Below are positions 761 through 62,654 of a stretch of DNA of 64,000 nt, one piece after another. Within the stretch, counting starts at the first letter, position 1. The number at the start of each line of letters is the position of its first letter. A program made the position numbers and the translations under genes. The notes beneath the pieces were generated by a model, which was given only the letters and a program-made list of their open reading frames with translations, searched no databases and had not been told where the DNA came from. The stretch comes from Candidatus Latescibacterota bacterium (GTDB lineage Bacteria > Latescibacterota > UBA2968 > UBA8231): assembly GCA_965221775.1 (NCBI GenBank), contig CBDCSU010000006.1, positions 1,600,001-1,664,000 on the forward strand, read 5' to 3'.

Positions 761-3145
761 ATGAAGGAACACCGACATCCGCACCCGCACAGGGATCCGC
801 GGCAGCCCAGGGCGGACGCCAGGCCGGGGACGAATCCCCCTGTCTTCGCCTGGCTTCCCGTGGATTCGGCGTCGGGGTATCGGCTGCAGGTGGCCCGGGA
901 CCCGGGCTTCGAGAACCTCTGCCTGGACCAGCGGGATCTGCAGGATCCCCTGTTTCTGCCCGAGACCGCCTTCGCGCCGGGGAGGTACTTCTGGCGATGG
1001 TCCGCGGGGGATGGCGCGATGTCGGAGGTCTTCGCCTTTGAGATCGCACCGGAGGCGGTGGTCGTGGAGGTGCCGCCGGCAGGGGAGTGGCTGAAGCGGT
1101 TCCCGGCCGGGCATCCGCGGATCTACGTCCGGCCGGAGGAGGTGCCGGCTCTCCGTGGGGCGTCCCTCGGCGACCGCGCTTCAGCTTGGAGAGGGCTGCG
1201 GGAGCAGGCCGAGGCGGTCCTCGCGGAGCCGCATGAGATCGAGGAGCCTCCCTTTCTCCCGGACCGCCGGGAGAGCTATCGGGCGTTCTTCGAGGTCTGG
1301 TCGCCGGTGATGTGGAACTCCCGGCGCTTCGTCAAGGGCGCGGAGACCCTGGCGCTGGCCTACCTCGTGGGCGGGGAGGATCGATTCGCCCGCGCCGCCT
1401 GCCAGCGCATGGCATCCATCTCCCGTTGGGATCCGGAGGGGTCCAGCCACCTCGCCCACAATGACGAAGCCCACATGTCGGTGATCTGGCACGGCTCGAT
1501 CGCGTGCGACTGGGTGTGGGACCGGTTCACCGACGAGGAACGCGAGGCGGTTCTCGCGCAGTTCCGGCGGCGCGGGCAGATCACCTTCGATCACATGCAC
1601 AACCGGGGATCGTACGGGGTCACCCGCTTCGACTCGCACGCCGGCCGCGAGATCGTCTTCCTGGCCCTCATCGCCCTGGTCTTCCACGACCACATTCCCG
1701 AAGCGGAGACATGGCTGGAGTGGCTGCGGCCGGTGCTGTGCGGCATCTGGCCGATCTGGGCCGGCGACGACGGCGCCTGGGCGGAAGGGCCCTCCTATGG
1801 ACTGGCCTACGTGACGATCATGACCATGTTCGCCACGGCGCTGAAACGGGGCGCCGGTGTGGACCTCTACAGGAAACCGTTCTGGAAGAACCACGCCCGG
1901 TGGCGCCGGTACTGCCTGCCACCCTACGCGGAGTGGATGGGATTCGGCGACCACACGGAGCGCTGGGCCAACTCGTGGCGGTCGAATGCCGACCTGGTGG
2001 ATTTGATCGGACGAGAGACGGAGACTGCTGAGTTCGCGCCGTACGTGGAGGCTCTTCGCGCCGAGGCGGAGCACCTGCACACGCCGCCGAAGCGGCAGAC
2101 CTCGGGCGTCCTGTCGCAGCTGTTTCTGGCCCCCGCCGCGAAGACGCAGGTGGGTGAGATCCCGCCGCGGCTCCGGGCGCGGATCCCTCTGACGCACACG
2201 CCGGAAGGGACCGCGCATGGCATGCTCCAAGTCTTCCCGTACGCGGGGTGGGCCGCGGTCCGCACCGACCTGGACGATCCGGCACGGGATGTAGCGATGA
2301 TCTTTCGCTCCTCTCCACTCGGCGCCATCAGCCATTCCCACGCCAACAACAACGACTTCATCCTGCACGCCGGGGGCAAGGTGCTGGCCATGCCCAGCGG
2401 CTACTACGACGGGTACGGCTCGGACCACCACAGCCACTGGGTGTGGCACACCAGGTCCCACAACTGCGCAACCCTCTCCGACGCCTCGCAGATCATGCGA
2501 TCTCACGATTCCACGGGGAAGATCGACAACGCCTTCGAGGACGAACGGCTCCTCTACTTTCGGGGCAACGCCGACGCCAGCTACAGCGACCGAGCGCAGC
2601 GATGCCGGCGGCACGTCTTCTTCCTGAAGACGCAGAGCTGCTTCGTGATGATCGACGAGTTTGCCGCGGCTCCCGGCATCGACTCGGCGTTGCAGTGGAA
2701 CATCCACTCCTGGAACCGCTTTGCCGTCGACGAGGAGGCAAGGACCTTCCTGTTGGAGCGCGACGCCAGTTCCCTCGAAGGGCACTTCATGTATCACAAC
2801 AACGCCTTCTTCTCCCTGAGCGAGGGATGGGACCCCCCGCCGATGCGGGCCGGCAAGGATGACTCGCAGTGGCACCCGCAGTATCACCTGCGGTTCACGC
2901 CCTCCGGTCTGGTGAGCCGGCGCAACCTGGGGGTGGTGTTGTGTCCGGGCCACGGGTCGCTGCATCGAGCCGAAGTGCGGACCGAGCGGTCGGGGGACAC
3001 GGAGGTAGCGCACATCGGGGATGATCTTGTGCTTGTGGGCGGTCGAGGCGGGGTGGCGTACGGCAACCATCGCTCGGACGGACTGGCGCTGCTGGTCGTG
3101 CAAGGCCGGGGGTATGAGCTTGGGGATACGGGCGTGGTTTCATGA
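761..3145 (+). CDS. Heparinase II/III-like polysaccharide lyase with DUF4962-like N-terminus
   Basis: 794 aa; HPRIY, WAEGPSYG, SHSHANNNDF and HTRSHNC motifs typical of this lyase architecture. Confidence 0.8.
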   Translation: MKEHRHPHPHRDPRQPRADARPGTNPPVFAWLPVDSASGYRLQVARDPGFENLCLDQRDLQDPLFLPETAFAPGRYFWRWSAGDGAMSEVFAFEIAPEAVVVEVPPAGEWLKRFPAGHPRIYVRPEEVPALRGASLGDRASAWRGLREQAEAVLAEPHEIEEPPFLPDRRESYRAFFEVWSPVMWNSRRFVKGAETLALAYLVGGEDRFARAACQRMASISRWDPEGSSHLAHNDEAHMSVIWHGSIACDWVWDRFTDEEREAVLAQFRRRGQITFDHMHNRGSYGVTRFDSHAGREIVFLALIALVFHDHIPEAETWLEWLRPVLCGIWPIWAGDDGAWAEGPSYGLAYVTIMTMFATALKRGAGVDLYRKPFWKNHARWRRYCLPPYAEWMGFGDHTERWANSWRSNADLVDLIGRETETAEFAPYVEALRAEAEHLHTPPKRQTSGVLSQLFLAPAAKTQVGEIPPRLRARIPLTHTPEGTAHGMLQVFPYAGWAAVRTDLDDPARDVAMIFRSSPLGAISHSHANNNDFILHAGGKVLAMPSGYYDGYGSDHHSHWVWHTRSHNCATLSDASQIMRSHDSTGKIDNAFEDERLLYFRGNADASYSDRAQRCRRHVFFLKTQSCFVMIDEFAAAPGIDSALQWNIHSWNRFAVDEEARTFLLERDASSLEGHFMYHNNAFFSLSEGWDPPPMRAGKDDSQWHPQYHLRFTPSGLVSRRNLGVVLCPGHGSLHRAEVRTERSGDTEVAHIGDDLVLVGGRGGVAYGNHRSDGLALLVVQGRGYELGDTGVVS

Positions 3146-3807
3146 GCGGCGACGACCACGGATGGGGCGATGAAGTCAAGCCGCGTTCAGGCCACAGCGG
3201 CCGCACCGGTATCGACAAAATCCTGAAAGAGGCCCGCCGCGGAGATCTGGGGTCCGTGAAGCGGCATCTTGGCCAGGACCCGTCCTTGCTGCTGGCCAAG
3301 AGCGGGGGACACAACCGGACGTTCCTCTGGGAAGCGACACGCGGCAATCGGGTCGAGGTCGTGCGGTTCCTGTTGCGGGCGGGAGCCGATCCCAATGTGC
3401 CGGGGCGGACAAGGGCGGAGATCCCCGTGCTCCTGAAGCCCTACTGTATCGCGCGACGCTATCGCCGCCCGCACCTCGCGGGGATGTTGGAAAGGGCCGG
3501 TTCCGTGATGGACATCTACTCGGCCTGCTATCTGGGTGACACGGACCGCGTGCGGCACTGCATCAAAGCCGAGCCCGGCCTGTTGACCAGGGAACAGGAA
3601 GACGACTCGGTCTGGCGTGTGACGCCCCTGCACTATGCCGTGGCCGGAGGCCACGAGCAGCTCACGCGGTGGCTGATCGGGGAAGGCGCAGGGGTGAAGC
3701 CCTATACCCGGCTGTTGTTCGGCGCGGCCGAGCGGACGAAACACGCGGAGCTGATTCCCGTGCTGGTAGAGGGGGGTGCGGACCTGGATCTGGTCAGGCT
3801 GAGGTGA
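3142..3807 (+). CDS. Ankyrin-repeat protein
   Basis: VVRFLLRAGADPN and TPLHYAVAGGH repeats; ATGA overlap with the upstream gene. Confidence 0.8.
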   Translation: MSGDDHGWGDEVKPRSGHSGRTGIDKILKEARRGDLGSVKRHLGQDPSLLLAKSGGHNRTFLWEATRGNRVEVVRFLLRAGADPNVPGRTRAEIPVLLKPYCIARRYRRPHLAGMLERAGSVMDIYSACYLGDTDRVRHCIKAEPGLLTREQEDDSVWRVTPLHYAVAGGHEQLTRWLIGEGAGVKPYTRLLFGAAERTKHAELIPVLVEGGADLDLVRLR

Positions 3808-6044: not shown

Positions 6045-7139
6045 TCACTCCTCCTTCAGGTGGCGGCAGTCCAGCCGCGCCACCTGCAGCGGCCTCTTGC
6101 CGGACCTCGTCCTCGGCCTCCTGTCCGCCCCCAGTACGATGAGCACCTCGGCCGCCTCGAGCCTGCCTTCGTACGCGGCCCTGTGGAGCGGCGTGCGCCC
6201 CTTTTTGTCCTGCGCGTCGAGATCGGCGCCGTGCGCGGCCAGCAGCCAGACCGCCTCGACTCTCCCCCTCTCGGCCGCCAGGTGCAACGGGGTTCGGTCG
6301 GTAGTGGTCTTGGCATCGACCTCGGCGCCGTGCCGCAGCAGCCACTTCAGGCAAGGGATCGAACCGGAGCGCGATGCCCAGTGAAGGGGGGTCATCCCCA
6401 TCTCTCCCCTCTGCATGACGACCGAGGAGTCCTCCCGGGCCAGCTCGAGCACGCGCTCGAGGTCGTTCATGCCGCAAGCCGAGAAGATGTCGAAGTGCGC
6501 CCCGTGCCCGAGCAGGGCGAGGACCGCATCGGCCACGTCGGGGTTCCAGCCCCCGGTGCCGAAACGCGCCGCAGCTTCCTGCAGCGGGGTGTTGCCGCCC
6601 TCCCCGTTGCCCGAGAACGGCGCCTCTGGGTCGGCCCCGTACGCGAGGGCGAACTCCGTGAACTCCACCGGCCGGCCGACGGCCCAGAACAGCAGCGAGG
6701 TGTTCGCCGGCCACCCGACGTGAGACGTGCTGATGACGGAGGCATCGCTGACGCCGGCCTCGAACACGGTGCGCAGGGTCTCGAAGTTCCCGTGGTAGAA
6801 GGCCTTGGTCACCGGCTCGTGCTGGTGCTTCCTGTAGAGTCCGGTGGCGCAGTCGTAGAATTCCCGGATGCCGCGATCGAGCAGGAAGCGGACGGCGTCG
6901 AGGGTCCCGAAGTAGGAGGCGGCCATGGCGAGGGCGACCGAACCGACCGACTCGAGCAGGGCCGGGTGCTCCCGCAGCAGGGCCTTTATCCGCGGGACGT
7001 CGCAACTGGCATGGCACAAGTCAGTGGCGCCGTGCGCCGCCGCGGTCAGGAACTGCTTCTCGAGGGGGGTGAACTTCCTGCCCTCCCTCATCTCGAAGGC
7101 CCTGGACATCTTCTGCATCAGGTAGTCGGTGTCGTTCAC
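6045..7139 (-). CDS. Ankyrin-repeat protein
   Basis: Several GxTPLHxAA...LLxxGADxxA repeats. Confidence 0.9.
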   Translation of the reverse strand: MNDTDYLMQKMSRAFEMREGRKFTPLEKQFLTAAAHGATDLCHASCDVPRIKALLREHPALLESVGSVALAMAASYFGTLDAVRFLLDRGIREFYDCATGLYRKHQHEPVTKAFYHGNFETLRTVFEAGVSDASVISTSHVGWPANTSLLFWAVGRPVEFTEFALAYGADPEAPFSGNGEGGNTPLQEAAARFGTGGWNPDVADAVLALLGHGAHFDIFSACGMNDLERVLELAREDSSVVMQRGEMGMTPLHWASRSGSIPCLKWLLRHGAEVDAKTTTDRTPLHLAAERGRVEAVWLLAAHGADLDAQDKKGRTPLHRAAYEGRLEAAEVLIVLGADRRPRTRSGKRPLQVARLDCRHLKEE

Positions 7140-7157
7140 TGGTTCCCCTTTGGCCGT

Positions 7158-7209
7158 GTGGCGCCGGGCGGGGGTTCTGTGCCGGGCGGTGTCGCCGGCG
7201 CCACTCGAT
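7158..7209 (+). repeat. Stand-alone hairpin module B
   Basis: gtggcgccgg-spacer-ccggcgccac-tcgat, the same module found downstream of several element A copies. Confidence 0.8.
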
Positions 7210-7394
7210 CCGGTGGCGCGCCTGGACTGATGGGCGCTGTTGGGGGCATGTTCGACTGCTGGAAACCCGCTCCTTACTCTTCGGTTGAGACCGGGGTAGC
7301 GGTGCTTACGTTACGCACCGATGAAGAGCATGGACATGGATAGGGAGAGATCGCTGATGTGTCTTGCAGCCGTGATTCACAGGGCGGAGGCCCC

Positions 7395-8768
7395 ATGGAG
7401 CTGACGCTCTACGACTCCTACTCGCGAAGCGAACGCGTCTTCGAGCCCCTCGGGTCGCCCGTCGGACTGTATGCCTGCGGGCCGACAGTCTACGACTACG
7501 CCCACATCGGCAACCTGAGGACCTACGTCTTCGAGGACGTGCTGCGGCGGGTGCTGGAGCACAACGGCTACGAGGTTCACCATGTAGTGAACATCACCGA
7601 CGTGGGTCACCTGACGTCGGACGCGGACACGGGCGAGGACAAGATGGAGCGGGGAGCGCGGCGCACCGGCAAGAGCGCCTGGTGGGTGGCGGACTTCTAC
7701 ACCCGGGCCTTCGAGGAAGACCTGCGCCGGCTCAACGTCCTCGAGCCGACGGTGTGGTGCAAGGCCACGGCCTACATCGACGAGCAGATCGACGTCATCC
7801 GCTCGCTGGAGGAGCGCGGCTTCATCTACAAGACCTCCGACGGGATCTACTTCGACACCTCCCGGCAGCCGGACTACGGCCGGCTGGCGCGGTTGGATGC
7901 GAAGGGGCTGCAGGCCGGCGCCCGCGTCGAGCTGGGCGAGAAGCGTCTGGCCACGGACTTCGCCTTGTGGAAGCTGAGCCCGGCCGACAGCAGGCGGCAG
8001 ATGGAGTGGGACAGCCCCTGGGGGCGGGGGTTCCCGGGGTGGCACACGGAGTGCGTGGCCATGTCGCAGTCCCATCTGGGCCCGCAGTTCGACATCCACT
8101 GCGGCGGCGAAGACCATCTCGCCATTCACCATGTGAACGAGATCGCCCAGGCCGAGGCCTGCTACGGGACCCGGCTCGCCCGGTTCTGGATGCACGGCCG
8201 GTTCCTGGTCCTCGACGACGAGCGCATGTCCAAGTCGAGCGGGTCCTTCCTGACTCTCGACAGCCTGGTCGAGGCGGGATACGACCCGCTGGCCTACCGG
8301 ATGTTCCTGCTCGGGGCGCACTACCGGCGGCCCCTCAGCTTCAACTGGGAAGCCCTTGACGCGGCGACGGCGGCCCTGGAACGGCTGCGCCGCACCGCCC
8401 ACGCCTGGGGTCCCGCCGGCGAGCCGGACCCGGCCTCCCTCGAGGCGTTCACGCGCTGCCTCAACAGCGACCTCAACATGCCCCGGGCCCTGGCCGTGGT
8501 CTGGGACCTGGTGCGGTCGGAGCTTCCCGACCAGGTGAAGAAGGGGACGCTGCTGGCCTTCGACAGCGTCCTCGGCCTCGGTCTGGCCGACTGGGAACCG
8601 CCCCAGGAGGAGATTCCGCCCGAGGTCGAGGAGATGGTGCGGCGGCGGACCGAGGCCCGGGGGCAGCGGGACTTCGAGACTGCAGACGCCCTCAGGGCGC
8701 AGATCCTCGAGGCCGGGTTCGACGTGGACGACCTGCCGGACGGCCCGAGGGTGAAGAGGCGCTCCTAG
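7395..8768 (+). CDS. cysS: Cysteine--tRNA ligase
   Basis: YACGPTVYDYAHIGN, GFPGWHTEC, DIHCGGED and RMSKS motifs; GGAGG Shine-Dalgarno upstream. Confidence 0.97.
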   Translation: MELTLYDSYSRSERVFEPLGSPVGLYACGPTVYDYAHIGNLRTYVFEDVLRRVLEHNGYEVHHVVNITDVGHLTSDADTGEDKMERGARRTGKSAWWVADFYTRAFEEDLRRLNVLEPTVWCKATAYIDEQIDVIRSLEERGFIYKTSDGIYFDTSRQPDYGRLARLDAKGLQAGARVELGEKRLATDFALWKLSPADSRRQMEWDSPWGRGFPGWHTECVAMSQSHLGPQFDIHCGGEDHLAIHHVNEIAQAEACYGTRLARFWMHGRFLVLDDERMSKSSGSFLTLDSLVEAGYDPLAYRMFLLGAHYRRPLSFNWEALDAATAALERLRRTAHAWGPAGEPDPASLEAFTRCLNSDLNMPRALAVVWDLVRSELPDQVKKGTLLAFDSVLGLGLADWEPPQEEIPPEVEEMVRRRTEARGQRDFETADALRAQILEAGFDVDDLPDGPRVKRRS

Positions 8769-8772
8769 GCAG

Positions 8773-8971
8773 GGGCGGCGCCGGCGGCTCCGGCCGCGCC
8801 TCGACGGCGCGTACGCCGGGCCTGATTGGTGGGGCTATCGACGGGGGTGGTTCGTGGGGTTGGCGAGCCCCTCGCTGCGCTCGGGTCTCTGGGTCCTCTT
8901 GGATGCGGGTGGTTGTTGACCCGGCCGGCGTAATGCGCCGCTCGGCTCGGCCTGCGCCGCCGTCGCCGCCC
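8773..8971 (+). repeat. Dispersed element A, copy 1
   Basis: Imperfect terminal inverted repeats, inner stem ggcgcgtacgccgg/ccggcgtaatgcgcc, core tggcgagcccctcgctgcgctcgggtctctggg. Confidence 0.95.
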
Positions 8972-9044
8972 TGGGCTCCCCGTGCCGGATGAACTTTTCC
9001 CCGCTGACGTCCGCCTTGCAGTGTGGAAGGGTGGACGACGCATC

Positions 9045-10445
9045 ATGACTGGCCCAGGCGACCATGTGTTGGCAGAGCAGGTTCGGCAGGGCTGCGAGGA
9101 CGCCTTCGTACGGCTGGTCCGGCGCTACGAACGGACGCTGGCGCGGCTGATCCGCGACCGGGTCGGTGGCGGCGACCAGGTTGAGGATGTCCTGCAGGAA
9201 ACCCTGGTGCACCTCTGGAGCGGCTTGCGCCGGGACACGCCGCGCGATGTGCGGCCCTGGCTGCTGCAGGTGGCCCGCAACCGCTGCCGCGACTACTTCC
9301 GTTCCACCCAGCGTCGCGAGCTGTTCGTCGAGACGGAGGTCTTGGCGCCCATGGTCAACCGCCTCGGCGTGGCCCAGGCCCGGCAGCGGGAAGCCGCCGC
9401 GGCCGTGGTCGAGGCCATGGAGGAGGTCCCCTACCGTGAGCGGGCTGCCCTGCGAGCCTTCTATCTGGACGGTCTGAGCATTGCCGAAATCGCCGCCCGC
9501 CACCGCTGCCCCGACGGCACGGTCAAGCGCCGACTGTCCCACGGGCGCGACCACGTCCGCAGGGTGCTGGGCGTCACCGCCAAGATGAGGAGCAAGACCA
9601 TGGGCGCTGGACAACAACGGCCCTTTCCCCGGTTCCGGCCCGAAATACGCATTGCCTCGAGCCAGGAGGACCCCTTCCGCATTGACTTGAAGGAGATGGC
9701 CTGGTGGTTCATCGTGCCCGAGGTGGGCGACCGCGTTCGCCACGGCTCATACGGGCCTTCCAGAGACGGCGAGGCGCCTTGGAGGCTGTCCCAGACCGTC
9801 TCCCTTGCGGCCAGCCGCCCCGCGGTCATCCACGGCCGTCCCTGCGTTGAGGTGGAGGTGGAGGAGCACCATCTCGCGGCGATGGCGGGGGACCACACGC
9901 CCACCGAAAAAAAGGACCGCATCGTGAAGGTCTGGGGCCGCCTTGCCGATGACTCGGTGGAGTGGATGGCGGTGGAGTCGTTGGGCGCGGACGGCACTCG
10001 GGAACTGATGACCTTTCTCGACGAGGGGTTCCACGACGACTGGGACCCTTCGCCGCGCCTGATCGAGGATCGCGGCTGCCTTCGCCCCCAGGCCGACGGC
10101 TCCCTCACCGTTCAGGCCGCCATCCCCCAGATAACCGGAGCCGGGGTGTTCGAGGTGCGCATCGGCGAGCGGTGCTTCACCTGCATGCGCGTCTTCGACC
10201 TGGAGAAAGAGACCAGCGAACGCGACGTCCTGGTCGAAGCTTATGTCACACGCACCGGACGCACGGTGCTGTTCCGACGCTACAACGGCAACCGATGGGG
10301 CAAGAGAGACGCCCCTCCGCACGGTTGGGGCGAGGAGATGACCTGGGAAGAGGACCTTCCCCACAACCACCGCATGGTCATCGGCGGAATGACCTTCGTG
10401 CACTACTACGACAGCCTGACGGACACGGCCTGCGTTACGGAGTGA
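9045..10445 (+). CDS. ECF sigma-70 factor with a long C-terminal extension
   Basis: Region 2 (EDVLQET...WLLQVARNRCRD) and region 4 (LSIAEIA...GTVKRRLSHGR), followed by ~280 aa I do not recognise. Start approximate. Confidence 0.85.
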   Translation: MTGPGDHVLAEQVRQGCEDAFVRLVRRYERTLARLIRDRVGGGDQVEDVLQETLVHLWSGLRRDTPRDVRPWLLQVARNRCRDYFRSTQRRELFVETEVLAPMVNRLGVAQARQREAAAAVVEAMEEVPYRERAALRAFYLDGLSIAEIAARHRCPDGTVKRRLSHGRDHVRRVLGVTAKMRSKTMGAGQQRPFPRFRPEIRIASSQEDPFRIDLKEMAWWFIVPEVGDRVRHGSYGPSRDGEAPWRLSQTVSLAASRPAVIHGRPCVEVEVEEHHLAAMAGDHTPTEKKDRIVKVWGRLADDSVEWMAVESLGADGTRELMTFLDEGFHDDWDPSPRLIEDRGCLRPQADGSLTVQAAIPQITGAGVFEVRIGERCFTCMRVFDLEKETSERDVLVEAYVTRTGRTVLFRRYNGNRWGKRDAPPHGWGEEMTWEEDLPHNHRMVIGGMTFVHYYDSLTDTACVTE

Positions 10446-10510
10446 CGGCCGCGGCCGATCCTTGAATCACCCATAGCGCATGGGTCGACGGGCCTGGCGA
10501 GCCCCTCACT

Positions 10511-10849
10511 TCACTCGGGACGCCACGCCGGGTGGGTGACATGCAGCAGAAAGGCCCGTTCCGGCACGGTGATGATCGTCTGCGTCCCCTTCTCGATGAA
10601 GCCCAGGTCCCCCGCCTCGTATCGCACCGGATCCTGGCCCTCGACCTGGACCTCCAGGTGCCCCTCCAGCATGTAGAAGACCTCGTCGTAGTCGAAGTTC
10701 CACGTCAGCCGGCTGGGCTCGACATACTCGGTGAAACCGGCCGACAGCCTGTCGCCGGCGCTTCTGATGGGATCGGAAACCCGCACGGTGGCGCCGGGCG
10801 CATCATAGGCGGCCAGGCCCCTCTGATCCTTCTGCACTCTCCAGATCAC
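10511..10849 (-). CDS. EutQ-like cupin
   Basis: LSAGF...WNFDYDEVFYMLEG...AGDLGFIEKG...HPAW. Confidence 0.8.
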   Translation of the reverse strand: MIWRVQKDQRGLAAYDAPGATVRVSDPIRSAGDRLSAGFTEYVEPSRLTWNFDYDEVFYMLEGHLEVQVEGQDPVRYEAGDLGFIEKGTQTIITVPERAFLLHVTHPAWRPE

Positions 10850-11978: not shown

Positions 11979-12212
11979 ATGAAAACCATGGGCATCTCGG
12001 AGTTCAAGGCGAAGTGCATAGAAGAGTTGAAGACCGTTCACGCTACGGGGGAATCCCTGGTCGTCACCTTGCGGAAGCGTCCCATCGCGACGGTCGATCC
12101 CTACCGGGAGACTCCACGCAAGCGGGAGCTGGGGACCCTGCGCGGGCGCATGACCATTCACGGCGACATCGTGGACTGTGATTTCGCGGACCACTGGGAG
12201 TGGGAAGGTTGA
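11979..12212 (+). CDS. Phd/YefM-family antitoxin
   Basis: MKTMGISEFKAKC...TGESLVVT...RELGTLRG. Confidence 0.88.
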   Translation: MKTMGISEFKAKCIEELKTVHATGESLVVTLRKRPIATVDPYRETPRKRELGTLRGRMTIHGDIVDCDFADHWEWEG

Positions 12213-12610
12213 ACTTCCTGATCGATACCCACGTGTGGATCTGGACCCAGGAGTCTCCGGAAACCCTGGGTCCCCATGCGCGCAGGGCCCTCGCCGCGGA
12301 AGAGAACCGCCTCTTCGTATCCCCGGTGTCGTCACTGGAGCTGGCGCAGCTCGCACGGGCAGGGCGCCTGACCCTGGCGGGCCGGCTGCAGACGTGGGTC
12401 TCGGAGTCGATGCAGGCGTTGCTTGCGGAGACGATCTCCCTCGACCACGAGACAGCGGTTGCGGCGTACGACCTGCCCGGAGAGTTCCATCGGGACCCCG
12501 CCGACCGCATCCTGGTCGCCACGGCGAGAGTCCACGACCTCACCGTGGTGACCGCGGACAGCCGCATCCTCACCTATCCTCATGTGATGGCGCTCGACGC
12601 GCGCGACTGA
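12209..12610 (+). CDS. vapC: VapC-family PIN toxin
   Basis: LIDTHVWIW, SPVSSLE, HRDPADRILVATA and VTAD motifs; TTG start overlaps the antitoxin stop. Confidence 0.9.
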   Translation: MNFLIDTHVWIWTQESPETLGPHARRALAAEENRLFVSPVSSLELAQLARAGRLTLAGRLQTWVSESMQALLAETISLDHETAVAAYDLPGEFHRDPADRILVATARVHDLTVVTADSRILTYPHVMALDARD

Positions 12611-12638: not shown

Positions 12639-12683
12639 TGGGTGACAACCGCCCTTGACGTGGGTGATTATCACCCATATCGT
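12639..12683 (+). promoter_or_regulatory. Promoter with a palindromic operator upstream of DUF4143 ATPase 1
   Basis: TTGACG (12655-60), a 17-bp spacer that is the palindrome TGGGTGATTATCACCCA, then TATCGT. A 12/17 degenerate copy lies 22 bp upstream. The ATG is 6 nt after the -10, suggesting a leaderless transcript. Confidence 0.65.
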
Positions 12684-12689
12684 GGGTCC

Positions 12690-13919
12690 ATGGACACGGA
12701 TCACCTGCTGCCCCGTTTTGCCTCCGAGAGCCTGGAGCAGGCGCTGAGAGTCATGCCCGTGGCTGTTCTCACCGGCGCCCGACAGACCGGCAAGAGCACC
12801 CTCGCCCGCATGGATCCCATCGGGGCGGACAGATCCTACTTCACCCTGGACGACTTCGGCGTCCTCGAGCAGGCTCAACGCGAGCCCGACGCCCTTGCCG
12901 CACGGGCCGTGCGGATCACGCTCGACGAGGTGCAGCGGGTGCCGCACGTGCTGCTCGCCATCAAACGCCTCGTCGACGCGGACCGGGTCGCCGGCCGCTT
13001 CCTCCTGACCGGGTCGGCGAACCTGCTGCTGATGAGGGAGGTGGGCGAGACCCTGGCCGGCCGGGCCAGCTACCTGACGCTCTGGCCCATGACCCGCCGC
13101 GAGCAGGGCGGGTCGGCCCGGCCAGGGATGTGGACGGAGCTCCTGGATGCGGCTCCCGGCGCATGGCGGGATCTCCTGCTCGAGGAACCGGCGGAACCGG
13201 AGCCGTGGGCGGCCCTGGCCCGGCGCGGAGGCTACCCCGTGCCCGCCCTTGAGCTGACGGACGATGACGACCGGCGGCTGTGGTTCGAAGGCTACGCGGC
13301 CACCTACCTGGAGCGGGACATCCCGCGTCTGTCCGCCATCGAGGGCATCACCGACCTGCGCAGGTTGATGGCGGCCTCCTGCCTGCGCATCGGCGGGCTC
13401 TTGAACCAGGCGGACCTGGCCCGGGACGTGAGCCTGGCCCCGTCCACGGTGCAGCGGTATCTCGACTTGCTGGAGGTCTCGTTCCAACTGGTGCGGCTGC
13501 CCGCCTACTCCGTGAACAGGACGAAGCGGCTGGTCAAGTCACCCAAACTCTACTGGAGCGACACCGGCCTGGCCCTGCACCTGGCGGGCGACGCCCAGCC
13601 CCGCGGCGCCCACCTGGAGAACCTGGTGGTCTGCGACCTGCTCGCCTGGGCGGGGGCCCGCTTCGACAGGCCGGAGATCCTCTTCTGGCGGACCACCAAG
13701 GGAGCCGAGGTCGACTTCGTCATCGAGACCGGCCGGCGCCTGCTGCCGGTGGAGGTGAAAGCCGCGGCCACCGTCCACCCCGGGGACGTGCGGCATGTTC
13801 ACACCTTCCTGGAGGAGTACTCCGACATGGCGCAGTGCGGGATCCTTCTCTACGACGGCGACGAGACATTCTGGCTCACCGACCGCGTGCTGGCCGCCCC
13901 GTGGTGGCGGGTGCTCTGA
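12690..13919 (+). CDS. AAA_14 ATPase with DUF4143 domain (COG1373)
   Basis: GARQTGKS, LDEVQ, LLTGSA, GGYP, YLERD, KSPKLYWSDTG and EVDFV...PVEVK motifs. Confidence 0.93.
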   Translation: MDTDHLLPRFASESLEQALRVMPVAVLTGARQTGKSTLARMDPIGADRSYFTLDDFGVLEQAQREPDALAARAVRITLDEVQRVPHVLLAIKRLVDADRVAGRFLLTGSANLLLMREVGETLAGRASYLTLWPMTRREQGGSARPGMWTELLDAAPGAWRDLLLEEPAEPEPWAALARRGGYPVPALELTDDDDRRLWFEGYAATYLERDIPRLSAIEGITDLRRLMAASCLRIGGLLNQADLARDVSLAPSTVQRYLDLLEVSFQLVRLPAYSVNRTKRLVKSPKLYWSDTGLALHLAGDAQPRGAHLENLVVCDLLAWAGARFDRPEILFWRTTKGAEVDFVIETGRRLLPVEVKAAATVHPGDVRHVHTFLEEYSDMAQCGILLYDGDETFWLTDRVLAAPWWRVL

Positions 13920-18543: not shown

Positions 18544-19584
18544 TCATGGCCCCACGGCGTACCGCCGCACCGCATCCTCGTCCAGCTCGACCCCCAGCCC
18601 CGGCTTGTCCGGGACCACCGCATGGCCGTCCCGGACCAGCGGTTCAGCGAGCAGGCTGTGCTCGTGGACGAAGTTGCCGCAGAGGTCGCTGGCCAGGGTG
18701 CAGTTGGGAGCGGCGGCGGAGGCGTGGAGGCGGAAGGCGTCGAAGATCCCCAGGTCGACGTTGGAGGCCTGCCATACGGGGATGCCCGCGGCCTCGGCGA
18801 TCCGCGCCATGTCGAGGAAGGCCCAGTCCGATGGGGCGACGTTGATCCCGTCCACGGCGTCGCGGGACACCATCTCGATCACCTGACGGGGGTTCTGCAG
18901 GTGGGGGGCGATGAGGATCGATGTCGCTTCCTTGAGGCGCCGGTAGTCGTCCACGTCGTCCTTGGGGATCGGATCTTCGAAGACGACGTCATACGCCTCG
19001 ATCTCGCGGGCCAGGGCCAGGGCCTGCTCGACGGTATGGAACCGGTGGCCGGGATCGAGGACGATGCGCAGCGTTGGCGCGGCCTCGTGTATGGCGTGCA
19101 CCCGGTCCGCCACGTCTCCATGGTCCAGGGAGCACTTCACCTTGATGCCGCGGAAGCCCTGTTCCGACGCCCGTCTGGCGGCGGCGGCTGACGCTTCCGG
19201 TCCCATGCGCGCGATCCAGTAGTCGACCAGAACGCGGTCCTGGGCCTTGCCGCCGAAGATGCGGTAGAGGGGCCAGCCGATCGCCTTGCCGATCAGATCC
19301 AGCAGGGCGATGTCGAATCCGCCACCCCCCAGGCTGCGGGGCTCGAAGTCGAGGGGGTTCTTCCCGATCAGGTCCGGGGCGGGATGCTCGTGGTCGCCGT
19401 AGTAGGGCCCGCTCATGCCGAGGCCGGTGATTCCCTCGTCGGTGTGGATGTGGAGCACATCCTGGTTCCTCTCGCCGAGGGCGGCGGGATAGGACTCGGT
19501 GAACTCCTCGTACCGGGGTGGGGGCAGGATGCCGGGCCGAAAGGGGACGCGGACTGCGGTGCGTTCCAGGTGCGTGATCCTCAT
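18544..19584 (-). CDS. Mandelate racemase/muconate lactonizing enzyme family
   Basis: DIALLDLIGK, IKVK, FEDP, VPDKPGLGVELDE. Confidence 0.9.
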   Translation of the reverse strand: MRITHLERTAVRVPFRPGILPPPRYEEFTESYPAALGERNQDVLHIHTDEGITGLGMSGPYYGDHEHPAPDLIGKNPLDFEPRSLGGGGFDIALLDLIGKAIGWPLYRIFGGKAQDRVLVDYWIARMGPEASAAAARRASEQGFRGIKVKCSLDHGDVADRVHAIHEAAPTLRIVLDPGHRFHTVEQALALAREIEAYDVVFEDPIPKDDVDDYRRLKEATSILIAPHLQNPRQVIEMVSRDAVDGINVAPSDWAFLDMARIAEAAGIPVWQASNVDLGIFDAFRLHASAAAPNCTLASDLCGNFVHEHSLLAEPLVRDGHAVVPDKPGLGVELDEDAVRRYAVGP

Positions 19585-19611
19585 GGGTCTCCTCGTGGGG
19601 TCTCCTCGTGC

Positions 19612-19814
19612 TGGCGGTGCCCGGCGGCTCCGGCCTCGCCTCGGCGGCGCGTACGCCGGGCTTTAGTGGTGGATCTATCGCCTTGGGTGATCCTCAGGGC
19701 TGGCGAGCCCCTCGCTTCGCTCGGGTCTCTGGGCCTTCTGGATGAGTTTGGTTGTTGACCCCGGCCCGGCGTAAGGGCGCCGCTCGGCTCGGCCTGCGCC
19801 GCCGGGCACCGCCC
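19612..19814 (+). repeat. Dispersed element A, copy 2
   Basis: Arms ggcggtgcccggcggc/gccgccgggcaccgcc; core variant ctcgcttcgctc. Confidence 0.95.
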
Positions 19815-19855
19815 AGGGTTCGGATTGCTGCCCACCCCTCGCTTCTCTTGTGGGT

Positions 19856-19905
19856 GTGGCGCCGGGTGGGATTCTGTGCCGGTGGTGGATCCGGCGCCAC
19901 TCGAT
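19856..19905 (+). repeat. Hairpin module B following copy 2
   Basis: gtggcgccgg...ccggcgccactcgat. Confidence 0.85.
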
Positions 19906-19964
19906 GCGGTGCCCGCAGGCCAGCGGTTGCCGCTGTCACCGCTGAGCCGCACGAAGGCAGGCCG

Positions 19965-20537
19965 CTACCGCTCTCCGCGCTGCATCCGCTCAAACTCTGC
20001 CCGTGAGATCTCGAAGTCCAGCACCCTCCCACCATCCACTTCCCTGGCGATGGTCAGACCGAGGGAACGCCACAGGGCCACGGAACGCGCATTGTCGGAA
20101 GACACATCCATCGCGCAAAGCCGGTCGATTCCCAAGTCTTCGAAGGCGTACGCCATGAGGCGCTGCGCCGCCTCCTTTCCGTATCCCCTTCCCCACAGGG
20201 ACTTGTCCCAGATTCCGATGGGCAGGCGCATCACCTTCTCACCCGGCACCTTCCCCCGATCCTGGTTCATCCACTGAAGACAGACTTCGCCGATGGTGCG
20301 GCCGCTCGCCTTCTCGACGATGGCGAAGAGGAATCCCTGCTCCGCCATGGCCTTTCCCGCGCGTCTGAGATAGCCGGCCGTGACGGGTTCCTCCGGAGGC
20401 TCCCCTTCCATCGCATTCAGGAAGTCGGGATCTCGATAGTACGGAACGGCCAGATCGAAGTCCCCATCCTCGAATGGCCGGAGTCTCAGGCGCGCTGTTT
20501 CCAGGTGGAGGTTGTGACGGGCGAAGTTGTCCATCAT
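19965..20537 (-). CDS. GNAT acetyltransferase, RimJ/RimL-like
   Basis: LETARLRLRPF, WGRGYGKEA, NARSVALWRSLG. Confidence 0.9.
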   Translation of the reverse strand: MMDNFARHNLHLETARLRLRPFEDGDFDLAVPYYRDPDFLNAMEGEPPEEPVTAGYLRRAGKAMAEQGFLFAIVEKASGRTIGEVCLQWMNQDRGKVPGEKVMRLPIGIWDKSLWGRGYGKEAAQRLMAYAFEDLGIDRLCAMDVSSDNARSVALWRSLGLTIAREVDGGRVLDFEISRAEFERMQRGER

Positions 20538-20560
20538 CTCGAGGGTGGGTCTCCTCCTGG

Positions 20561-20762
20561 TGGGCGGTGACTGCGGCTCCGGCCTCGCCTCGGCGGCGCG
20601 TACGCCGGGCTGCGTTGGTGGATCTATCGCCTTGGGTGATCCTCAGGGCTGGCGAGCCCCTCGCTGCGCTCGGGTCTCTGGGCCTTCTGGATGAGGCTGG
20701 TTGTTGACCCCGGGCCGGCGTAATGCGCCGCTCGGCTCGGCCTGCGCCGCCGTCACCGCCCA
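20561..20762 (+). repeat. Dispersed element A, copy 3
   Basis: Arms gggcggtgac/gtcaccgccc; interior nearly identical to copy 2. Confidence 0.95.
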
Positions 20763-20784
20763 GGGGTTGGATCGCTGGCCACAT

Positions 20785-20814
20785 GCGCCGGTGGTGACTC
20801 CGGCGCCACTCGAT
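20785..20814 (+). repeat. Truncated hairpin module B following copy 3
   Basis: gcgccggtggtgactccggcgccactcgat. Confidence 0.7.
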
Positions 20815-20955
20815 GTGGTGGTGCGCTGCCCTGGTGGGGCCGCGTCGTCACAGAAGCCGTACAATAGCGCAAGCCAGCTGCGGCTGGTCCCGATGAATTG
20901 CCGACGATTCGCCGGTTCCCGGTCCCCTTCGTCGAAAATGTACCCATTGCGAATA

Positions 20956-23217
20956 ATGAAGATGATCTTGTTCCCTTTGGCCCTCCTGCTCGGCACCCTG
21001 TCCATCCCGCCGGGCAGCCAGGCTCAAGACCATGCCCGCTGGGGGTTGCCGGAGGGTGCCGCCCTCCGTCTGGGCAAGGGGCGCACCGGTGAAGGCGACC
21101 GGGCCGTGGCTTACTCCCCCGATGGCACCCGGCTGGCGGTGGCCGGCAACCTCGGCGTCTGGCTCTACGATGTCCACACGGGTGCCGAGGTCGCCCTGCT
21201 CACAGGCCATGCTGCTCCCGTAAACTCCGTGGCCTTTGCGCCGGATGGACAAACCCTCGCCAGTGCGAGTGCCGACCATACGGTGAGGTTGTGGGACATC
21301 GAGACGGCACGGTCAGAGGTCACCCTCGAAGGCCATCTGAAGGATGTCCTCTGCGTCGCGTTCTCCCCGGACGGACAAACCCTGGCTACCGGCAGCAGGG
21401 ACCAGACAGTGCGGTTGTGGCAGGCGGCCACCGGAGAGCCGAAGGCTACCCTCCACGGAGAAGCGTCCTCGGTCAATGCTCTGGCCTTCTCCCTCGATGG
21501 TCAAACCCTCGCCAGTGGCTACCGAAACGGCACCGCTCGGTTGTGGGACGGATTTACCGGAGAACCCGGGGCCGCCCTCGAAAGAGGCCGAGCGGGGCGC
21601 ATCAATACGGTAGCCTTCGCGCCCGATGGTCAGACCCTGGCCACTGGCAGGCAGCAAACGATCGACTTGTGGGACGTCAACAGCGGACAGCCGCGAGCCA
21701 CCCTGCACGACATGGGCGTGCATACATCCTGGGTCAACTCCGTAGCCTTCTCACCTGATGGCAGGACCCTCGCCAGCGTGGGCTCGAACCACGTGATCGC
21801 GTTGTGGGAGATCGACTCCGTGCAACGAAAGGCCAAGTTCAAGGAGCGAGGCGCCGACTTCACTTCCGTGGCCTTCTCGCCCGATGGAACTACACTCGCC
21901 AGTGCCGGGAGGGACAACAGAATACGGCTGTGGGACGTCCGCACCGGACTGGAGGAGATCACTATCCTGGACCATGGGCATGGGGACAGGGTCAGTTCCG
22001 TTGCCTTCGCCCCCGATGGCACCACCCTCGCCAGCAGTAGCTGGGACGGGACGCTGCGACTGTGGGACCTCGGCACGGGACAGGCAGAAGCCACCCTGAA
22101 GACCCCTTGGGGGCCTGTCAGTTCTGTTGCTTTCTCGCCCGATGGCGAAACCCTCGCAAGTGGCCATTGGGTTTACTTCGTTATGCTGCTGGACATCGCC
22201 GCATTCCGGAAGGCCACCTTGGAAACCTCGACCATCTCCTGGAGAACGTCGTTGACGAGGATCCTCAAAGGCCATCGGAATGATGTGCTCTGCGTGGCGT
22301 ACGCCCAGGATGGAGAGACCCTGGCCAGCGGCGATGAGAACGGGATCGTGCGGTTGTGGGACGTGTCCAGCGAGCAGGAACGGGCTACCCTGCAGGAACA
22401 TGGTGAACGTGTCCTGTCCGTGGCCTTCTCGCCCACTGGAGAGGTGCTCGCCAGCGCCAGCGGAGACGAGACGGCGCGGGTCTGGGATGCGGACAGTGGA
22501 CAACTGAAGTCCACTCTGCGGCACACGGGCTGGGTCACTTCCGTTGCTTTTTCGCCGGACGAGAGAACCCTCGCCAGCGGGGGCTGGGATCAGAAGGTCA
22601 GGCTGTGGGAGCTGAGCAGTGGCCAGCAAGTGGGCACCCTCGAGGTCGATGGCTCCTGGATCAATGCGGTAGCCTTCTCGCCTCGCGGAAACGTCCTTGC
22701 CAGCGCCGGTTCGGACCAGACCGTCAGGCTGTGGGAAGTGAGCACCGGGCAGCCAAGGGCCGTCTTCAAAGGCCATGTGGAATCGGTCCTTTCGGTGACG
22801 TTCTCGCCGGACGGGAACCTCCTTGCCAGTGCCAGCACGGACGGCACGATTCTGCTGTGGGATACGTCCCCATCCGCCGCTCCGCCCGCGCCGACGGCGA
22901 TTCGGGTTGCCACGCCGCTGCCGGCGCGGACGGCGCTGCTGGCCAACTTCCCCAATCCCTTCAATCCGGACACCTGGATTCCGTTTCAGCTCCACGCGCC
23001 GGCTCACGTACGGCTGAACATCTACGATGTGCGGGGAGCCTTGGTGCGCAGAATCGACCTGGGTCATCGTGCGGCGGGCCAGTACCTGACCCGTGCCGGC
23101 GCCGCCCACTGGGATAGCCGCAACCATCGCGGTGAACGGGTGTCCAGCGGCGTCTATCTGTACTCCCTGCAGGCAGGGCCGGCCACCCACGTACGCAAGA
23201 TGGTCCTCACCAGGTAG
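20956..23217 (+). CDS. Secreted WD40-repeat protein with a C-terminal FlgD-Ig/sorting-like domain
   Basis: Signal peptide; WGLPEGA.LRLGKG; roughly 13-14 VAFSPDG.TLAS...RLWD repeats; LLANFPNPFNPDTWIPF...SSGVYLY...RKMVL tail. Confidence 0.92.
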   Translation: MKMILFPLALLLGTLSIPPGSQAQDHARWGLPEGAALRLGKGRTGEGDRAVAYSPDGTRLAVAGNLGVWLYDVHTGAEVALLTGHAAPVNSVAFAPDGQTLASASADHTVRLWDIETARSEVTLEGHLKDVLCVAFSPDGQTLATGSRDQTVRLWQAATGEPKATLHGEASSVNALAFSLDGQTLASGYRNGTARLWDGFTGEPGAALERGRAGRINTVAFAPDGQTLATGRQQTIDLWDVNSGQPRATLHDMGVHTSWVNSVAFSPDGRTLASVGSNHVIALWEIDSVQRKAKFKERGADFTSVAFSPDGTTLASAGRDNRIRLWDVRTGLEEITILDHGHGDRVSSVAFAPDGTTLASSSWDGTLRLWDLGTGQAEATLKTPWGPVSSVAFSPDGETLASGHWVYFVMLLDIAAFRKATLETSTISWRTSLTRILKGHRNDVLCVAYAQDGETLASGDENGIVRLWDVSSEQERATLQEHGERVLSVAFSPTGEVLASASGDETARVWDADSGQLKSTLRHTGWVTSVAFSPDERTLASGGWDQKVRLWELSSGQQVGTLEVDGSWINAVAFSPRGNVLASAGSDQTVRLWEVSTGQPRAVFKGHVESVLSVTFSPDGNLLASASTDGTILLWDTSPSAAPPAPTAIRVATPLPARTALLANFPNPFNPDTWIPFQLHAPAHVRLNIYDVRGALVRRIDLGHRAAGQYLTRAGAAHWDSRNHRGERVSSGVYLYSLQAGPATHVRKMVLTR

Positions 23218-25811: not shown

Positions 25812-25843
25812 GGGTCTGCCTTCTTGGGGGTCTCGCCTCGGGC

Positions 25844-26041
25844 GGGCGTCGCCGGCGGCTCCGGCCGCGCCTCGGCGGCGGCGTACGCCGGAGTGGTTGG
25901 GGGGACTATCGCTGAAGGGGATCCTTGGGGCTGGCGAGCCCCTCGCTGCGCTCGGGTCTCTGGGCCCTCTGAAATGAAGGAGGTGATGACCCCCCGGCGT
26001 AATGCGCCGCGACGGCGCGGCCTGCGCCGCCGGCGACGCCC
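25844..26041 (+). repeat. Dispersed element A, copy 4
   Basis: Arms gggcgtcgccggcggc/gccgccggcgacgccc; conserved core. Confidence 0.95.
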
Positions 26042-26140
26042 TTGGAGGGGAGGGTTTGTGGTCGGCGGCGTGGCCAAGTGCAGAGGAGGACTCGCGACGG
26101 GAATGTGGTGAAAGATGGACATGGGACTTTGGTGCCGGGA

Positions 26141-29370: not shown

Positions 29371-29396
29371 GGGGTGGTGGGTGGTTCCGCTTGGCC

Positions 29397-29601
29397 GGGC
29401 GGTGCCGGCGGCTCCGGCCGCGCCTTTGGCGGCGCGTACGCCGGGCCTGGTTGGTTGGGGCTATCGACTGGGGGTGGGTTCGTGGGGCTGGCGAGCCCCT
29501 CGCTTCGCTCGGGTCTCTGGGCCCTCTTGGATGCGTGCAGGTGGTGACCCCGCCCGGCGTAGTGCGCCGCCCAGGCGCGGCCTGCGCCGCCGGCACCGCC
29601 C
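29397..29601 (+). repeat. Dispersed element A, copy 5
   Basis: Arms gggcggtgccggcggc/gccgccggcaccgccc; core ctcgcttcgctc. Confidence 0.95.
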
Positions 29602-29642
29602 TGCGTGGGTGAGATCCGGCACACTCTTTCTTGTGAACCGGG

Positions 29643-29692
29643 GTGGCGCCTGACGGGGTCCTGGGCCGATGGTGGGTCCGGCGCCACTCGAT
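29643..29692 (+). repeat. Hairpin module B following copy 5
   Basis: gtggcgcc...ccggcgccactcgat. Confidence 0.8.
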
Positions 29693-29747
29693 CTGGTGGG
29701 GCGCCAGCTTGGTGGCCTGTTGTTGACGGGGTAATCATCACGAAGGC

Positions 29748-45863: not shown

Positions 45864-46367
45864 CTACTGGCCGGGTTGCAGACGCGAGGAAAACCTCCGC
45901 AGGACTTCTCTCGAGATGTGATGAGGATTGTTGGCATGGATCCTCTCCGCCGCCGCCAGAGCACGCGAGGCCGAGAGAGCCCCTTCCGAAACCAGATCGA
46001 GCATGAGTTCCAACCCCCACCTCGTCCGGACATTGTGTTCACTGCAGATTCGACGAAGAAGGCGGTCATTGGTCAGGCAGACCCAGTCGTTCTCCCGGCA
46101 GACGTGGAGCGACAGGCGATCGTAGCGTGAGAGTCTTCGTGGGAGTTCCTCCAATTGGAGCAGGGTCTCGGGTCCAACCTCGATCACCCTCAGTCCGATT
46201 TCTCCGCACCGTGCGAGGCTCAGGTCATCCACTTCATCGACAACGTCTCGCAGGACATGGACCGGGGCGAGATGCTGAACGACCAGCGCAAGAATCGCCA
46301 AGTCCGAGTCCCGGTAATCGATCAGTACATTCGCGTCCGACAGAAGTACCGCCGGCCGGTCGGGCAT
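45864..46367 (-). CDS. PIN-domain protein (putative toxin)
   Basis: LLSDANVLID, VVDEV, LSRYD, LTNDRLLR. Confidence 0.75.
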   Translation of the reverse strand: MPDRPAVLLSDANVLIDYRDSDLAILALVVQHLAPVHVLRDVVDEVDDLSLARCGEIGLRVIEVGPETLLQLEELPRRLSRYDRLSLHVCRENDWVCLTNDRLLRRICSEHNVRTRWGLELMLDLVSEGALSASRALAAAERIHANNPHHISREVLRRFSSRLQPGQ

Positions 46368-46368
46368 C

Positions 46369-47496: not shown

Positions 47497-47807
47497 CCTG
47501 GCTCCCTGCTGGGGGAATTGCTGGGCGGGGAGGTCGCCCCGCTTAAGTTATCTTCGCGACACCGCACTGTCCAGTTGTATATTTCTCTCTGTGTTTTGGG
47601 CCCGCCTCAAGCAGCCCATCGATACCTCGGATACCTCATGGAGCTTGCCGTTACCTGGACGATCTGCTGTGCGCCTCACCTACTAAACCCCGATCCTGTC
47701 CATGTCAATCTCTCCCTCCAAGGATCGAGGCCACCGTCTTGAGAGCCTAGTAGCGGCTCTCTATAGTAGCCTCAAGACACGCAAGGAATCGGACGGGAGA
47801 AACCATC

Positions 47808-51264: not shown

Positions 51265-51302
51265 GTACAACCTTTTTGCACCTCCATGACATATCCGTGA
51301 CA
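51265..51302 (+). promoter_or_regulatory. Putative OmpR/PhoB-type binding site
   Basis: 11-bp periodic repeats gtaca, ttgca, TGACA, TGACA between the regulator and the next gene. Confidence 0.45.
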
Positions 51303-51380
51303 ACCCGGATCGCCCCGGTCCGCAGGTTTGCGGGTGAGCCTGACGACGCGCATCCGCCCACCCGAACCGGGAGGTCCACC

Positions 51381-54170: not shown

Positions 54171-54182
54171 TCCGCCTTCCGG

Positions 54183-59029: not shown

Positions 59030-59033
59030 AATT

Positions 59034-62650: not shown

Positions 62651-62654
62651 GACG

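Follow-up and report, generated by a model that had tools for sequence, protein, structure and literature searches.

A strand-asymmetric palindromic repeat family with a recurrent DNA mini-hairpin module at its tip in one Latescibacterota genus

We analyzed a 64,000-nt stretch of a Candidatus Latescibacterota bacterium genome (contig CBDCSU010000006.1, here C6, positions 1600001–1664000; hereafter the window) in which a first-pass annotation, made from the letters alone, had flagged a short hairpin with G.A mismatches. This core hairpin forms the centre and apical tip of a ~200-nt imperfect palindromic repeat (repeat families D1, D2, D9–D13 and D16; alignment A1, the eight window copies). The family is one array of 12–15 co-directed copies in a gene-variable region of 60–77 kb, restricted to a single genus, and is better described as a strand-asymmetric palindromic repeat of ~200–350 nt whose tip is a recurrent DNA mini-hairpin module. 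Its mismatches are nearly all G.A on one strand and its outer stem covaries. A strand-specific role at the DNA level is the best-supported reading, which we hold tentatively and with slightly less than even confidence.

The core hairpin, its G.A pairs and the covarying stem

The minus strand of the window served as model strand throughout. On it, positions 8865–8889 read GAGACCCGAGCGCAGCGAGGGGCTC, 25 nt that resolve into GAG-A-CCC-GA-GC-GCA-GC-GA-GGG-G-CTC. This is exactly the parse given by the first-pass annotation, with every mismatch a G.A. In copy 1 the hairpin is extended by GGC/GCC with a CCA bulge, spanning approximately 8859–8895. At up to 3 mismatches, the 25-mer matched the minus strand of the window 8 times and the plus strand never, against 0.01 expected; none of 100 shuffles reached 8. 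The loop varied as had been described, with GCA in six copies and GAA in copies 2 and 5 (19705 and 29493), and the core at 54271 carried G in place of A at position 2. Among 40 distinct element copies gathered from several genomes, the core G.A positions were retained in 39–40 and the loop-closing G.A in 35, with C, A or T as the loop N. The observation is borne out on this five-fold larger sample.

The stability of such hairpins, which the first-pass annotation had called established, is indeed in print. According to a review (PMC13037366), GCGNAGC and GCGNNAGC DNAs are extraordinarily stable mini-hairpins with a sheared G.A pair; GCGAAGC DNA melts at 76.5 °C and an RNA counterpart, r(GCGAAAGC), at 39 °C. 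The review lists the phage G4 origin, ssiA and the phage N4 virion RNA polymerase promoters as sites of such mini-hairpins. The motif is defined there and in the accessible part of PMC3201870, whose topic is d(GCA) loops and their closing pair, as GC-G-N-A-GC with a C-G closing pair and any N. The core has this form, and 35 of the 40 copies keep its G...A.

Mismatches were then tabulated per strand over the 40 copies. Nine of the ten non-Watson-Crick oppositions in the consensus are G.A on the model strand, the tenth being A.C. The outer members are an A.G at one outer position, a G.A and an A.G flanking a C-G pair, and a tandem G.A/A.G beside a bulged C; the core contributes an A.G, its tandem and the loop-closing pair. 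Seven of the nine positions are retained in 35–40 of the copies. One outer mismatch is often Watson-Crick instead (A.G 17, C-G 10, A-T 6, G-C 2, T-A 1), which shows that "repair" to a Watson-Crick pair can occur at sites that permit it. At positions with a Watson-Crick consensus, 34 deviating cells were G.A or A.G and 8 were C.T or T.C; 13 of the 34 came from a single column, and the cells are not independent events because the copies are related. Deviations of the G.T/T.G type (36) and A.C/C.A type (32) revealed no G-U bias. The strand asymmetry proposed from the window thus persists in the larger alignment, and the G-U signature named as pointing to RNA is absent. Finer details also held. 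Outer-stem mismatches are mostly G.A, GCA facing GGA in A1 as G.A, C-G and A.G; the tandem GA of copies 2 and 3 appears there as GA/AG; and the side-hairpin string gcc-GAA-ggc or gcc-AAA-ggc is present in copies 5, 6 and 8.

Covariation was scored on alignment A2, which holds 37 of the 40 copies by reference, three truncated copies being omitted. In the named structure of 53 Watson-Crick pairs, 96.3% of cells pair. Both-sided changes occurred in 9 pairs versus 2.4 in shuffles (0 of 500 reached 9) and 1–4 when partners were slid, and all nine covarying pairs lie within the ~45-bp outer stem. In the two core helices, 6 pairs never vary, 2 vary on one side and 3 depart through unpaired cells only. 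RNAalifold, run on the 37 copies with RNA parameters, independently predicted both the outer stem and the core hairpin.

Conservation between genomes follows the same anatomy. In 15 orthologous copy pairs from three genomes, the core was 97% identical and the arms 92–94%, compared with 78–82% for two interior segments, a value below that of the flanking DNA (87–94%). Paralogues inside a genome gave similar identities. Core and arms are therefore constrained, being more identical than the drifting interior.

The repeat unit and its single array

At the element ends, ~45 positions per arm are mutually complementary on the minus strand. The ~100-nt interior is non-palindromic and consists of the invariant core hairpin together with C/A-rich stretches carrying the motifs CATCC, CGATAG and CCACCAAC. 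Over the 40 copies the element starts with GGGCGGTG... and finishes with ...CACCGCCC. All-against-all BLAST of upstream flanks identified a ~130-nt 5' accessory module with the hairpin GTGGCGCC...GGCGCCAC in 9–10 of 13 copies compared, and ~20 nt of 3' tail similarity was found in 5 of 12 copies examined. Element, 5' module and tail together make a ~350-nt unit in 9–10 of 13 copies. Because similarity continues 5' and 3' of the arms, the inverted arms are not the ends of the repeated unit. A solo accessory-module hairpin, GTGGCGCCGG...CCGGCGCCAC (family D14), stands at 7157–7215 with no 200-nt element adjoining.

The copies in the window, all on the minus strand, are as follows.

8772–8971, minus: element copy 1 (nhmmer 172 bits, core match, alignments A1 and A2); begins 4 nt past the stop of a cysS-like gene at 7359–8768 (Pfam tRNA-synt_1e)
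8865–8889, minus: flagged core within copy 1 (core match search; hairpin also predicted by RNAalifold)
10484–10523, minus: degenerate 40-nt core remnant (nhmmer E=0.015; repeat family D8); both mini-stem GC pairs read GT
19617–19815, minus: element copy 2, GAA loop, tandem GA/AG in the outer stem (core match, A1, nhmmer)
19816–19950, minus: accessory 5' module of copy 2, ends approximate (flank BLAST and alignment; family D14 at 19853–19911)
20561–20762, minus: element copy 3 (core match, nhmmer); missing at the corresponding site of relative G007
25843–26042, minus: element copy 4 (core match, A1, nhmmer); outer-stem variant GTCG/CGAC, a compensated change
29396–29602, minus: element copy 5, GAA loop (core match, nhmmer)
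~29603–29740, minus: accessory module of copy 5 (flank alignment; D14 at 29640–29698)
54180–54380, minus: element copy 6 (core match, nhmmer); occupies the entire gap between two convergent genes
57223–57424, minus: element copy 7 (core match, nhmmer); 81 nt upstream of a minus-strand gene start
63663–63865, minus: element copy 8, followed by its accessory module (core match, nhmmer, flank alignment)
63943–64000, minus: truncated further copy that leaves the window (C6:1663943–1664128; nhmmer, flank alignment); without the 3' arm and fused to the module of copy 8

The assembly (G000) comprises 5.36 Mb in six contigs and is 96.8% complete. A profile search of the whole genome with nhmmer found 13 full or near-full copies, one half copy and the 40-nt core remnant, all on the minus strand and inside C6:1587110–1664128 (77 kb). 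The 14 copies are all the matches at E<1e-10; the remaining genome matches were weak self-matches of the palindrome on the opposite strand and one at E=0.11. Among 40 relatives, matches at E≤1e-10 were confined to the same genus, where they occurred in 6 of 9 other species genomes (one being a 43-nt match); four further genomes had short GC-rich matches at E ~5e-4 only. Relatives G007 (2675957–2741358) and G006 (3896409–3956906) each carry a single array on one strand. The array lies 141–218 kb from dnaA in all 3 complete or near-complete genomes.

Elements are found at 5' ends, at 3' ends and between convergent or divergent genes, and their direction is independent of gene strand. By Pfam, the 70 open reading frames (ORFs) in and around the array include accessory-type genes. 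Nine of the encoded proteins have a PhyH dioxygenase domain. Also represented are ankyrin and HEAT repeats, a sulfatase, BNR and heparinase-like proteins, a PIN protein, two DUF4143 ATPases, an AAA_15 protein paired with DUF4435, and TonB-dependent receptors accompanied by ECF sigma factor and FecR. The same set encodes a cysteinyl-tRNA synthetase and an IlvD/Edd dehydratase.

Several neighbouring features were recorded in passing. Between copies 3 and 4, the plus strand has a run of ~10 units of 126 nt (21200–22900) that look by eye like putative WD40 blades, and the third-codon GC (GC3) of this putative gene is below that of its neighbours. In a stretch likewise of lower GC3, an AAA_15/AAA_21 ATPase gene adjoins a DUF4435 gene inside the array just upstream of the window (C6:1590420–1592650; L026:4420–6650), a domain pair that we take to be a mark of the PARIS anti-phage system. 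A low-GC patch at 46001–48000 (62% versus ~69%), probably foreign DNA, contains a gene with HTH and ImmA/IrrE (Peptidase_M78) domains at 46369–47496. PhyH (phytanoyl-CoA dioxygenase) proteins number ten in the ~110 kb annotated, from 10863–45000 and the flanks: seven in the window, one in the array just upstream, and two beyond the array ends, one of these in the window and one outside. Ankyrin-repeat genes lie at 3142–3807 and 6045–7139, and a HEAT-repeat/PhyH fusion at 41258–42664. Paralogous AAA_14 plus DUF4143 ATPase genes occupy 12642–13919 and 55883–57142, the first preceded by a PIN-domain gene (12200–12610). A ~570-nt internal duplication (families D7 and D20) is present at 52032–52982 in a glycosyl-hydrolase-like gene (51276–53030).

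The mini-hairpin in other repeats and the replication strand

The central module, CC-GA-GC-GNA-GC-GA-GG, recurs beyond the genus. Its 15-mer, CCGAGCGNAGCGAGG, has matches in 48 of 168 genomes of the phylum, and those outside the genus number ~92 versus ~15 for a reversed control by hand count of the table. In G026 (24 matches) and G078 (9 matches) it forms a separate arm of a different, ~75-nt Y-shaped repeat, with A, G or T as N. Alternative folds are impossible in that context, which supports the fold proposed by the first-pass annotation for the central 15 bases. The Y-shaped repeat consists of an outer stem GGCCCTCACCCC/GGGGTGAGGGCC, a hairpin CCCTCTCCC...GGGAGAGGG and then the G.A mini-hairpin (L166–L185), and is present in 24 copies in G026 and ~20 in G078.

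Metagenomes were scanned with a 19-base core pattern, and the best 80 of 86 stretches were examined (L068–L147). The true element occurred in one locus (L127) among the 80 matches listed. The listed matches were mostly coding or chance; in ~20, judged by eye, the motif caps unrelated hairpins. A contig of 51% GC (L139) has the same 27 bases within a different outer stem. The stem was extended by at least one further pair in 10 of 12 motif-scan loci, versus 26% of random spans. Viral contigs yielded no match to the core pattern. In three metagenome contigs (L089, L108 and L116), which belong to another repeat family, the core words give the interleaving helices CCCTCGC/GCGAGGG and CCCGAGC/GCTCGGG, possibly a pseudoknot or a pair of competing hairpins.

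Strand placement could be compared in the complete genome G078, whose GC skew reverses sign around dnaA (3.08 Mb). Of 9 exact copies there, 8 have their G.A strand on the C-rich strand. Copies found by BLAST are mostly on the minus strand right of dnaA and on the plus strand left of it, and are regionally clustered. The window follows the same rule: its plus strand is G-rich, and the G.A strand is the C-rich minus strand.

A proposed strand-specific DNA role and its competitors

The first-pass annotation took the functional molecule to be the minus strand as folded single-stranded DNA (ssDNA). The strand asymmetry, the absent G-U signature and the lack of RNA signs favour a DNA-level role, short of demonstrating it. 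The single co-directed array, the covarying stem, the constrained core and arms, the recurring module with its strand rule and the greater stability of GCGNAGC mini-hairpins as DNA also speak for it. We infer that the element folds as DNA and is acted on by a reader protein. The minus (C-rich) strand would fold into a long hairpin, either as transient ssDNA or as one arm of an extruded cruciform. Its fixed-position G.A pairs and d(GC-GNA-GC) mini-hairpin may let this strand fold better than its C.T-mismatched complement. A predicted reader protein would recognize the tip, which never varies, along with CGATAG, CATCC and CCACCAAC, motifs that are unpaired and conserved, and the protein–hairpin interaction would drive orientation-preserving local copying, local recombination or both.

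A number of results weigh against this reading. The first concern the reader protein. The suggestion that the hairpin is an HUH-nuclease substrate found no support, with no Y1_Tnp match in any of the four genus genomes searched (G000, G002, G006 and G007). No genome match to the integron integrase model TIGR02249 passed the cut-off, the best scoring 62.9 bits against 265 and lying on other contigs; the seven tyrosine recombinases of the genome are all away from the array; and Pfam detected no recombinase or transposase among the 70 ORFs. Signatures of mobility are likewise missing: no target-site duplication or flanking direct repeats were seen around 12 copies, and where relatives were compared for the presence or absence of a copy (three cases), the intergenic DNA had been replaced and no clean empty site was seen. 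More distant genus members (G001, G003, G008 and G009), with cysS ~70% identical, are too divergent for such a comparison.

Other points touch the fold and its strand. The proposed core fold agrees with the parse and with the RNAalifold hairpin, yet it need not be the sole fold, as the same bases can form two competing 5-bp hairpins (GCGAG-GGG-CTCGC and CGAGC-N10-GCTCG). Covariation neither supports nor contradicts it, because the core has no both-sided changes. Sheared G.A pairs are common in RNA too and hence not DNA-specific. Nearest-neighbour energies of the 39-nt core, computed for both strands as DNA and RNA, were no better than those of shuffles (minus strand z −0.13 to −0.69); such models miss the GCGNAGC mini-hairpin motif, according to the review PMC13037366. 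Should the G-rich strand be the leading one, its template would be the foldable G.A strand, which would then be little exposed as ssDNA. In this genome the cumulative GC-skew minimum (~1.38 Mb) and dnaA (1805596–1806954) lie ~420 kb apart, with a second local dip at dnaA, and depending on which is followed, the array would be replicated in one direction or the other. The disagreement could stem from a large inversion, an atypically placed origin or a fault in the assembly; gene-strand bias gave too weak a signal to locate the origin.

The element was compared with known hairpin repeats. Like REP/BIME sequences and their RAYT enzymes, it is an intergenic, GC-rich, imperfect palindrome, non-coding and multicopy, and the known REP hairpin is read as ssDNA. 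It differs in the missing Y1_Tnp, in its longer unit (200–350 nt) and in having its copies on one strand within 77 kb, where REP copies are dispersed or in inverted pairs. Y1 genes do exist in G078 and G026, but the hairpins beside them are not the module-bearing element; in G078 (L186 and L187) these hairpins are AT-centred, such as GCGCGGGAAT...ATTCCCGCGC, in the classic REP/RAYT layout, and unrelated to the element. MITE, ERIC and Correia repeats share the form of ~100–350-nt non-coding intergenic repeats with long inverted termini. Unlike them, the element lacks target-site duplications (12 copies), its unit exceeds the inverted arms, the arms covary, and it occupies a single locus in a single orientation. 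The d(GCGNAGC) DNAs of the phage G4 origin, RSF1010 ssiA and N4 promoters have in common with the core a strand-specific hairpin with GC-GNA-GC and variable N. They are, however, single phage or plasmid origin or promoter sites with a known enzyme, whereas here the hairpin belongs to a repeat family of the chromosome, carries additional tandem G.A pairs and has no enzyme known to act on it. Single-strand initiation signals are linked to it by the shared mini-hairpin motif alone, and the priming role suggested by the first-pass annotation has no support. Core 12-mers used to search full-text literature hit only vector and primer sequences among the matches listed, and no description of the element was found.

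Of the competing explanations, a structured RNA survives best, and we consider it unlikely. A minus-strand transcript of ~200–350 nt would bind a protein or G-rich targets through its stem, tandem G.A pairs and C/A-rich loops. The covarying outer stem, the consistent RNAalifold fold under RNA parameters and the C/A-rich loops with recurring CCACCAAC would suit such a molecule, and tandem G.A flanked as C-GA-G is a motif typical of RNA. Two metatranscriptome runs yielded contigs over the element (region 7300–10600), though these give no strand, ends or level. Relative to its flanks, element cover was no higher in RNA (~5–6-fold) than in two DNA runs (~15–22-fold), a weak comparison that uses contigs only. 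Rfam 15 gave no gathering-score match in the whole window, and a relaxed search of 19400–21000 (E up to 5) gave only two chance-level matches (E 0.3–1.2), neither on the element. No tRNA or tmRNA was detected in the window, nor any promoter or terminator pattern in 19400–21000, the one stretch scanned. We know of no RNA rationale for a single co-oriented array that disregards gene direction. G-U oppositions show no excess over A.C (36 versus 32), and the review PMC13037366 indicates that the mini-hairpin is much less stable as RNA.

An array of duplex binding sites is rather improbable. In this explanation a nucleoid, segregation or regulatory protein would bind the ~45-bp invariant core and neighbouring motifs and thereby organize the origin-proximal region. 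The invariance of the core goes beyond pairing and extends to the unpaired motifs, the core contains the GCGAG-GGG-CTCGC dyad, and the position relative to dnaA is conserved in 3 of 3 genomes. Yet a 45-bp covarying stem and G.A-only mismatches are unneeded for a duplex site, and the same mini-hairpin module occurs in dispersed repeats elsewhere. No candidate protein gene was found beside the array, whose flanks hold metabolic genes only.

Very unlikely, in our judgement, is an integron-like cassette platform, in which folded single-strand sites would serve a recombinase encoded elsewhere and gene blocks would be gained, lost and shuffled. As in integron attC arrays and in CALIN, attC clusters without an integrase, co-oriented imperfect palindromes lie between gene blocks, one such array per genome, and the integron substrate is a folded strand. 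The array holds accessory and defence-type genes. Synteny among the three arrays is largely preserved, at 87–94% identity, with indels and reordered blocks setting them apart. A 6.2-kb four-gene block (57424–63663) is bounded exactly by two elements and absent from G007 and G006; blocks are permuted beside elements from A-B to B-A around an element (G000rc 72–75 kb) and from X-Y-Z to Y-Z-X (G000rc 78–85 kb); and a 2.9-kb insertion begins 18 nt after an element. Synteny-break ends fell within 250 nt of an element in 11 of 34 cases (versus G007) and 13 of 36 (versus G006), where ~4.3 were expected at random; 2 and 0 of 2000 random trials, respectively, reached the observed value, on a baseline that takes no account of the breaks' preference for intergenic DNA. 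The foldable strand is apparently the leading-strand template, as is the attC folding strand in 25 of 30 sedentary chromosomal integrons (PMC5371416).

The resemblance to cassette arrays holds for co-orientation, but only about one-third of break ends are at elements and roughly two-thirds lie away from them. The blocks are multi-gene, with up to ~20 genes on both strands, cysS included, and element spacing reaches 25 kb. There is no intI: no integrase exceeded the cut-off, the weak matches are away from the array, and no recombinase is nearby. attC sites are usually 57–141 nt long and carry an R'' box (RYYYAAC) and an R' box (GTTRRRY) at their two ends. The element is longer, no AAC/GTT pair stands at its ends over 40 copies, and its mismatches are paired G.A in place of the extrahelical bases of attC. 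Homologous recombination between 200-bp direct repeats gives the same patterns, and for this reason we keep the cassette platform as a minority reading.

A passive palindromic relic, whose G.A/C.T asymmetry would keep the lagging-exposed C.T strand unfolded or reflect strand-biased mutation, is highly improbable: by GC skew the C.T version is on the lagging-strand template here and in G078, and neither an enzyme nor a target duplication was found, but the core is 97% identical between orthologues against 78–82% for the interior, the G.A positions are fixed and unscattered, one often being Watson-Crick and others never, and the module recurs in unrelated repeat families.

The preferred reading, a strand-specific role of the DNA, can be carried further into a proposal that we regard as quite unlikely in its full form. 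YY-GA-GC-GNA-GC-GA-RR, a DNA mini-hairpin clamped by tandem sheared G.A pairs, would be a widespread strand-specific handle for an undescribed ssDNA enzyme that copies or recombines several unrelated repeat families across the phylum. Within the present genus that enzyme would have produced a single integron-like, co-oriented array that partitions a 60–77-kb accessory-gene region, with the foldable strand on the leading-strand template.

Hairpin repeats in bacteria can usually be traced to a known enzyme, for instance a RAYT, an integron integrase or an IS200/IS605 transposase. Here selection has left clear signs, in that the stem covaries, the G.A positions are fixed and the tip is invariant, yet none of these enzymes accompanies the family. 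The element is a concrete case of a natural d(GCGNAGC) hairpin with a candidate chromosomal role. If the array is a recombination platform, it would represent a second, integrase-independent way of stockpiling accessory genes.

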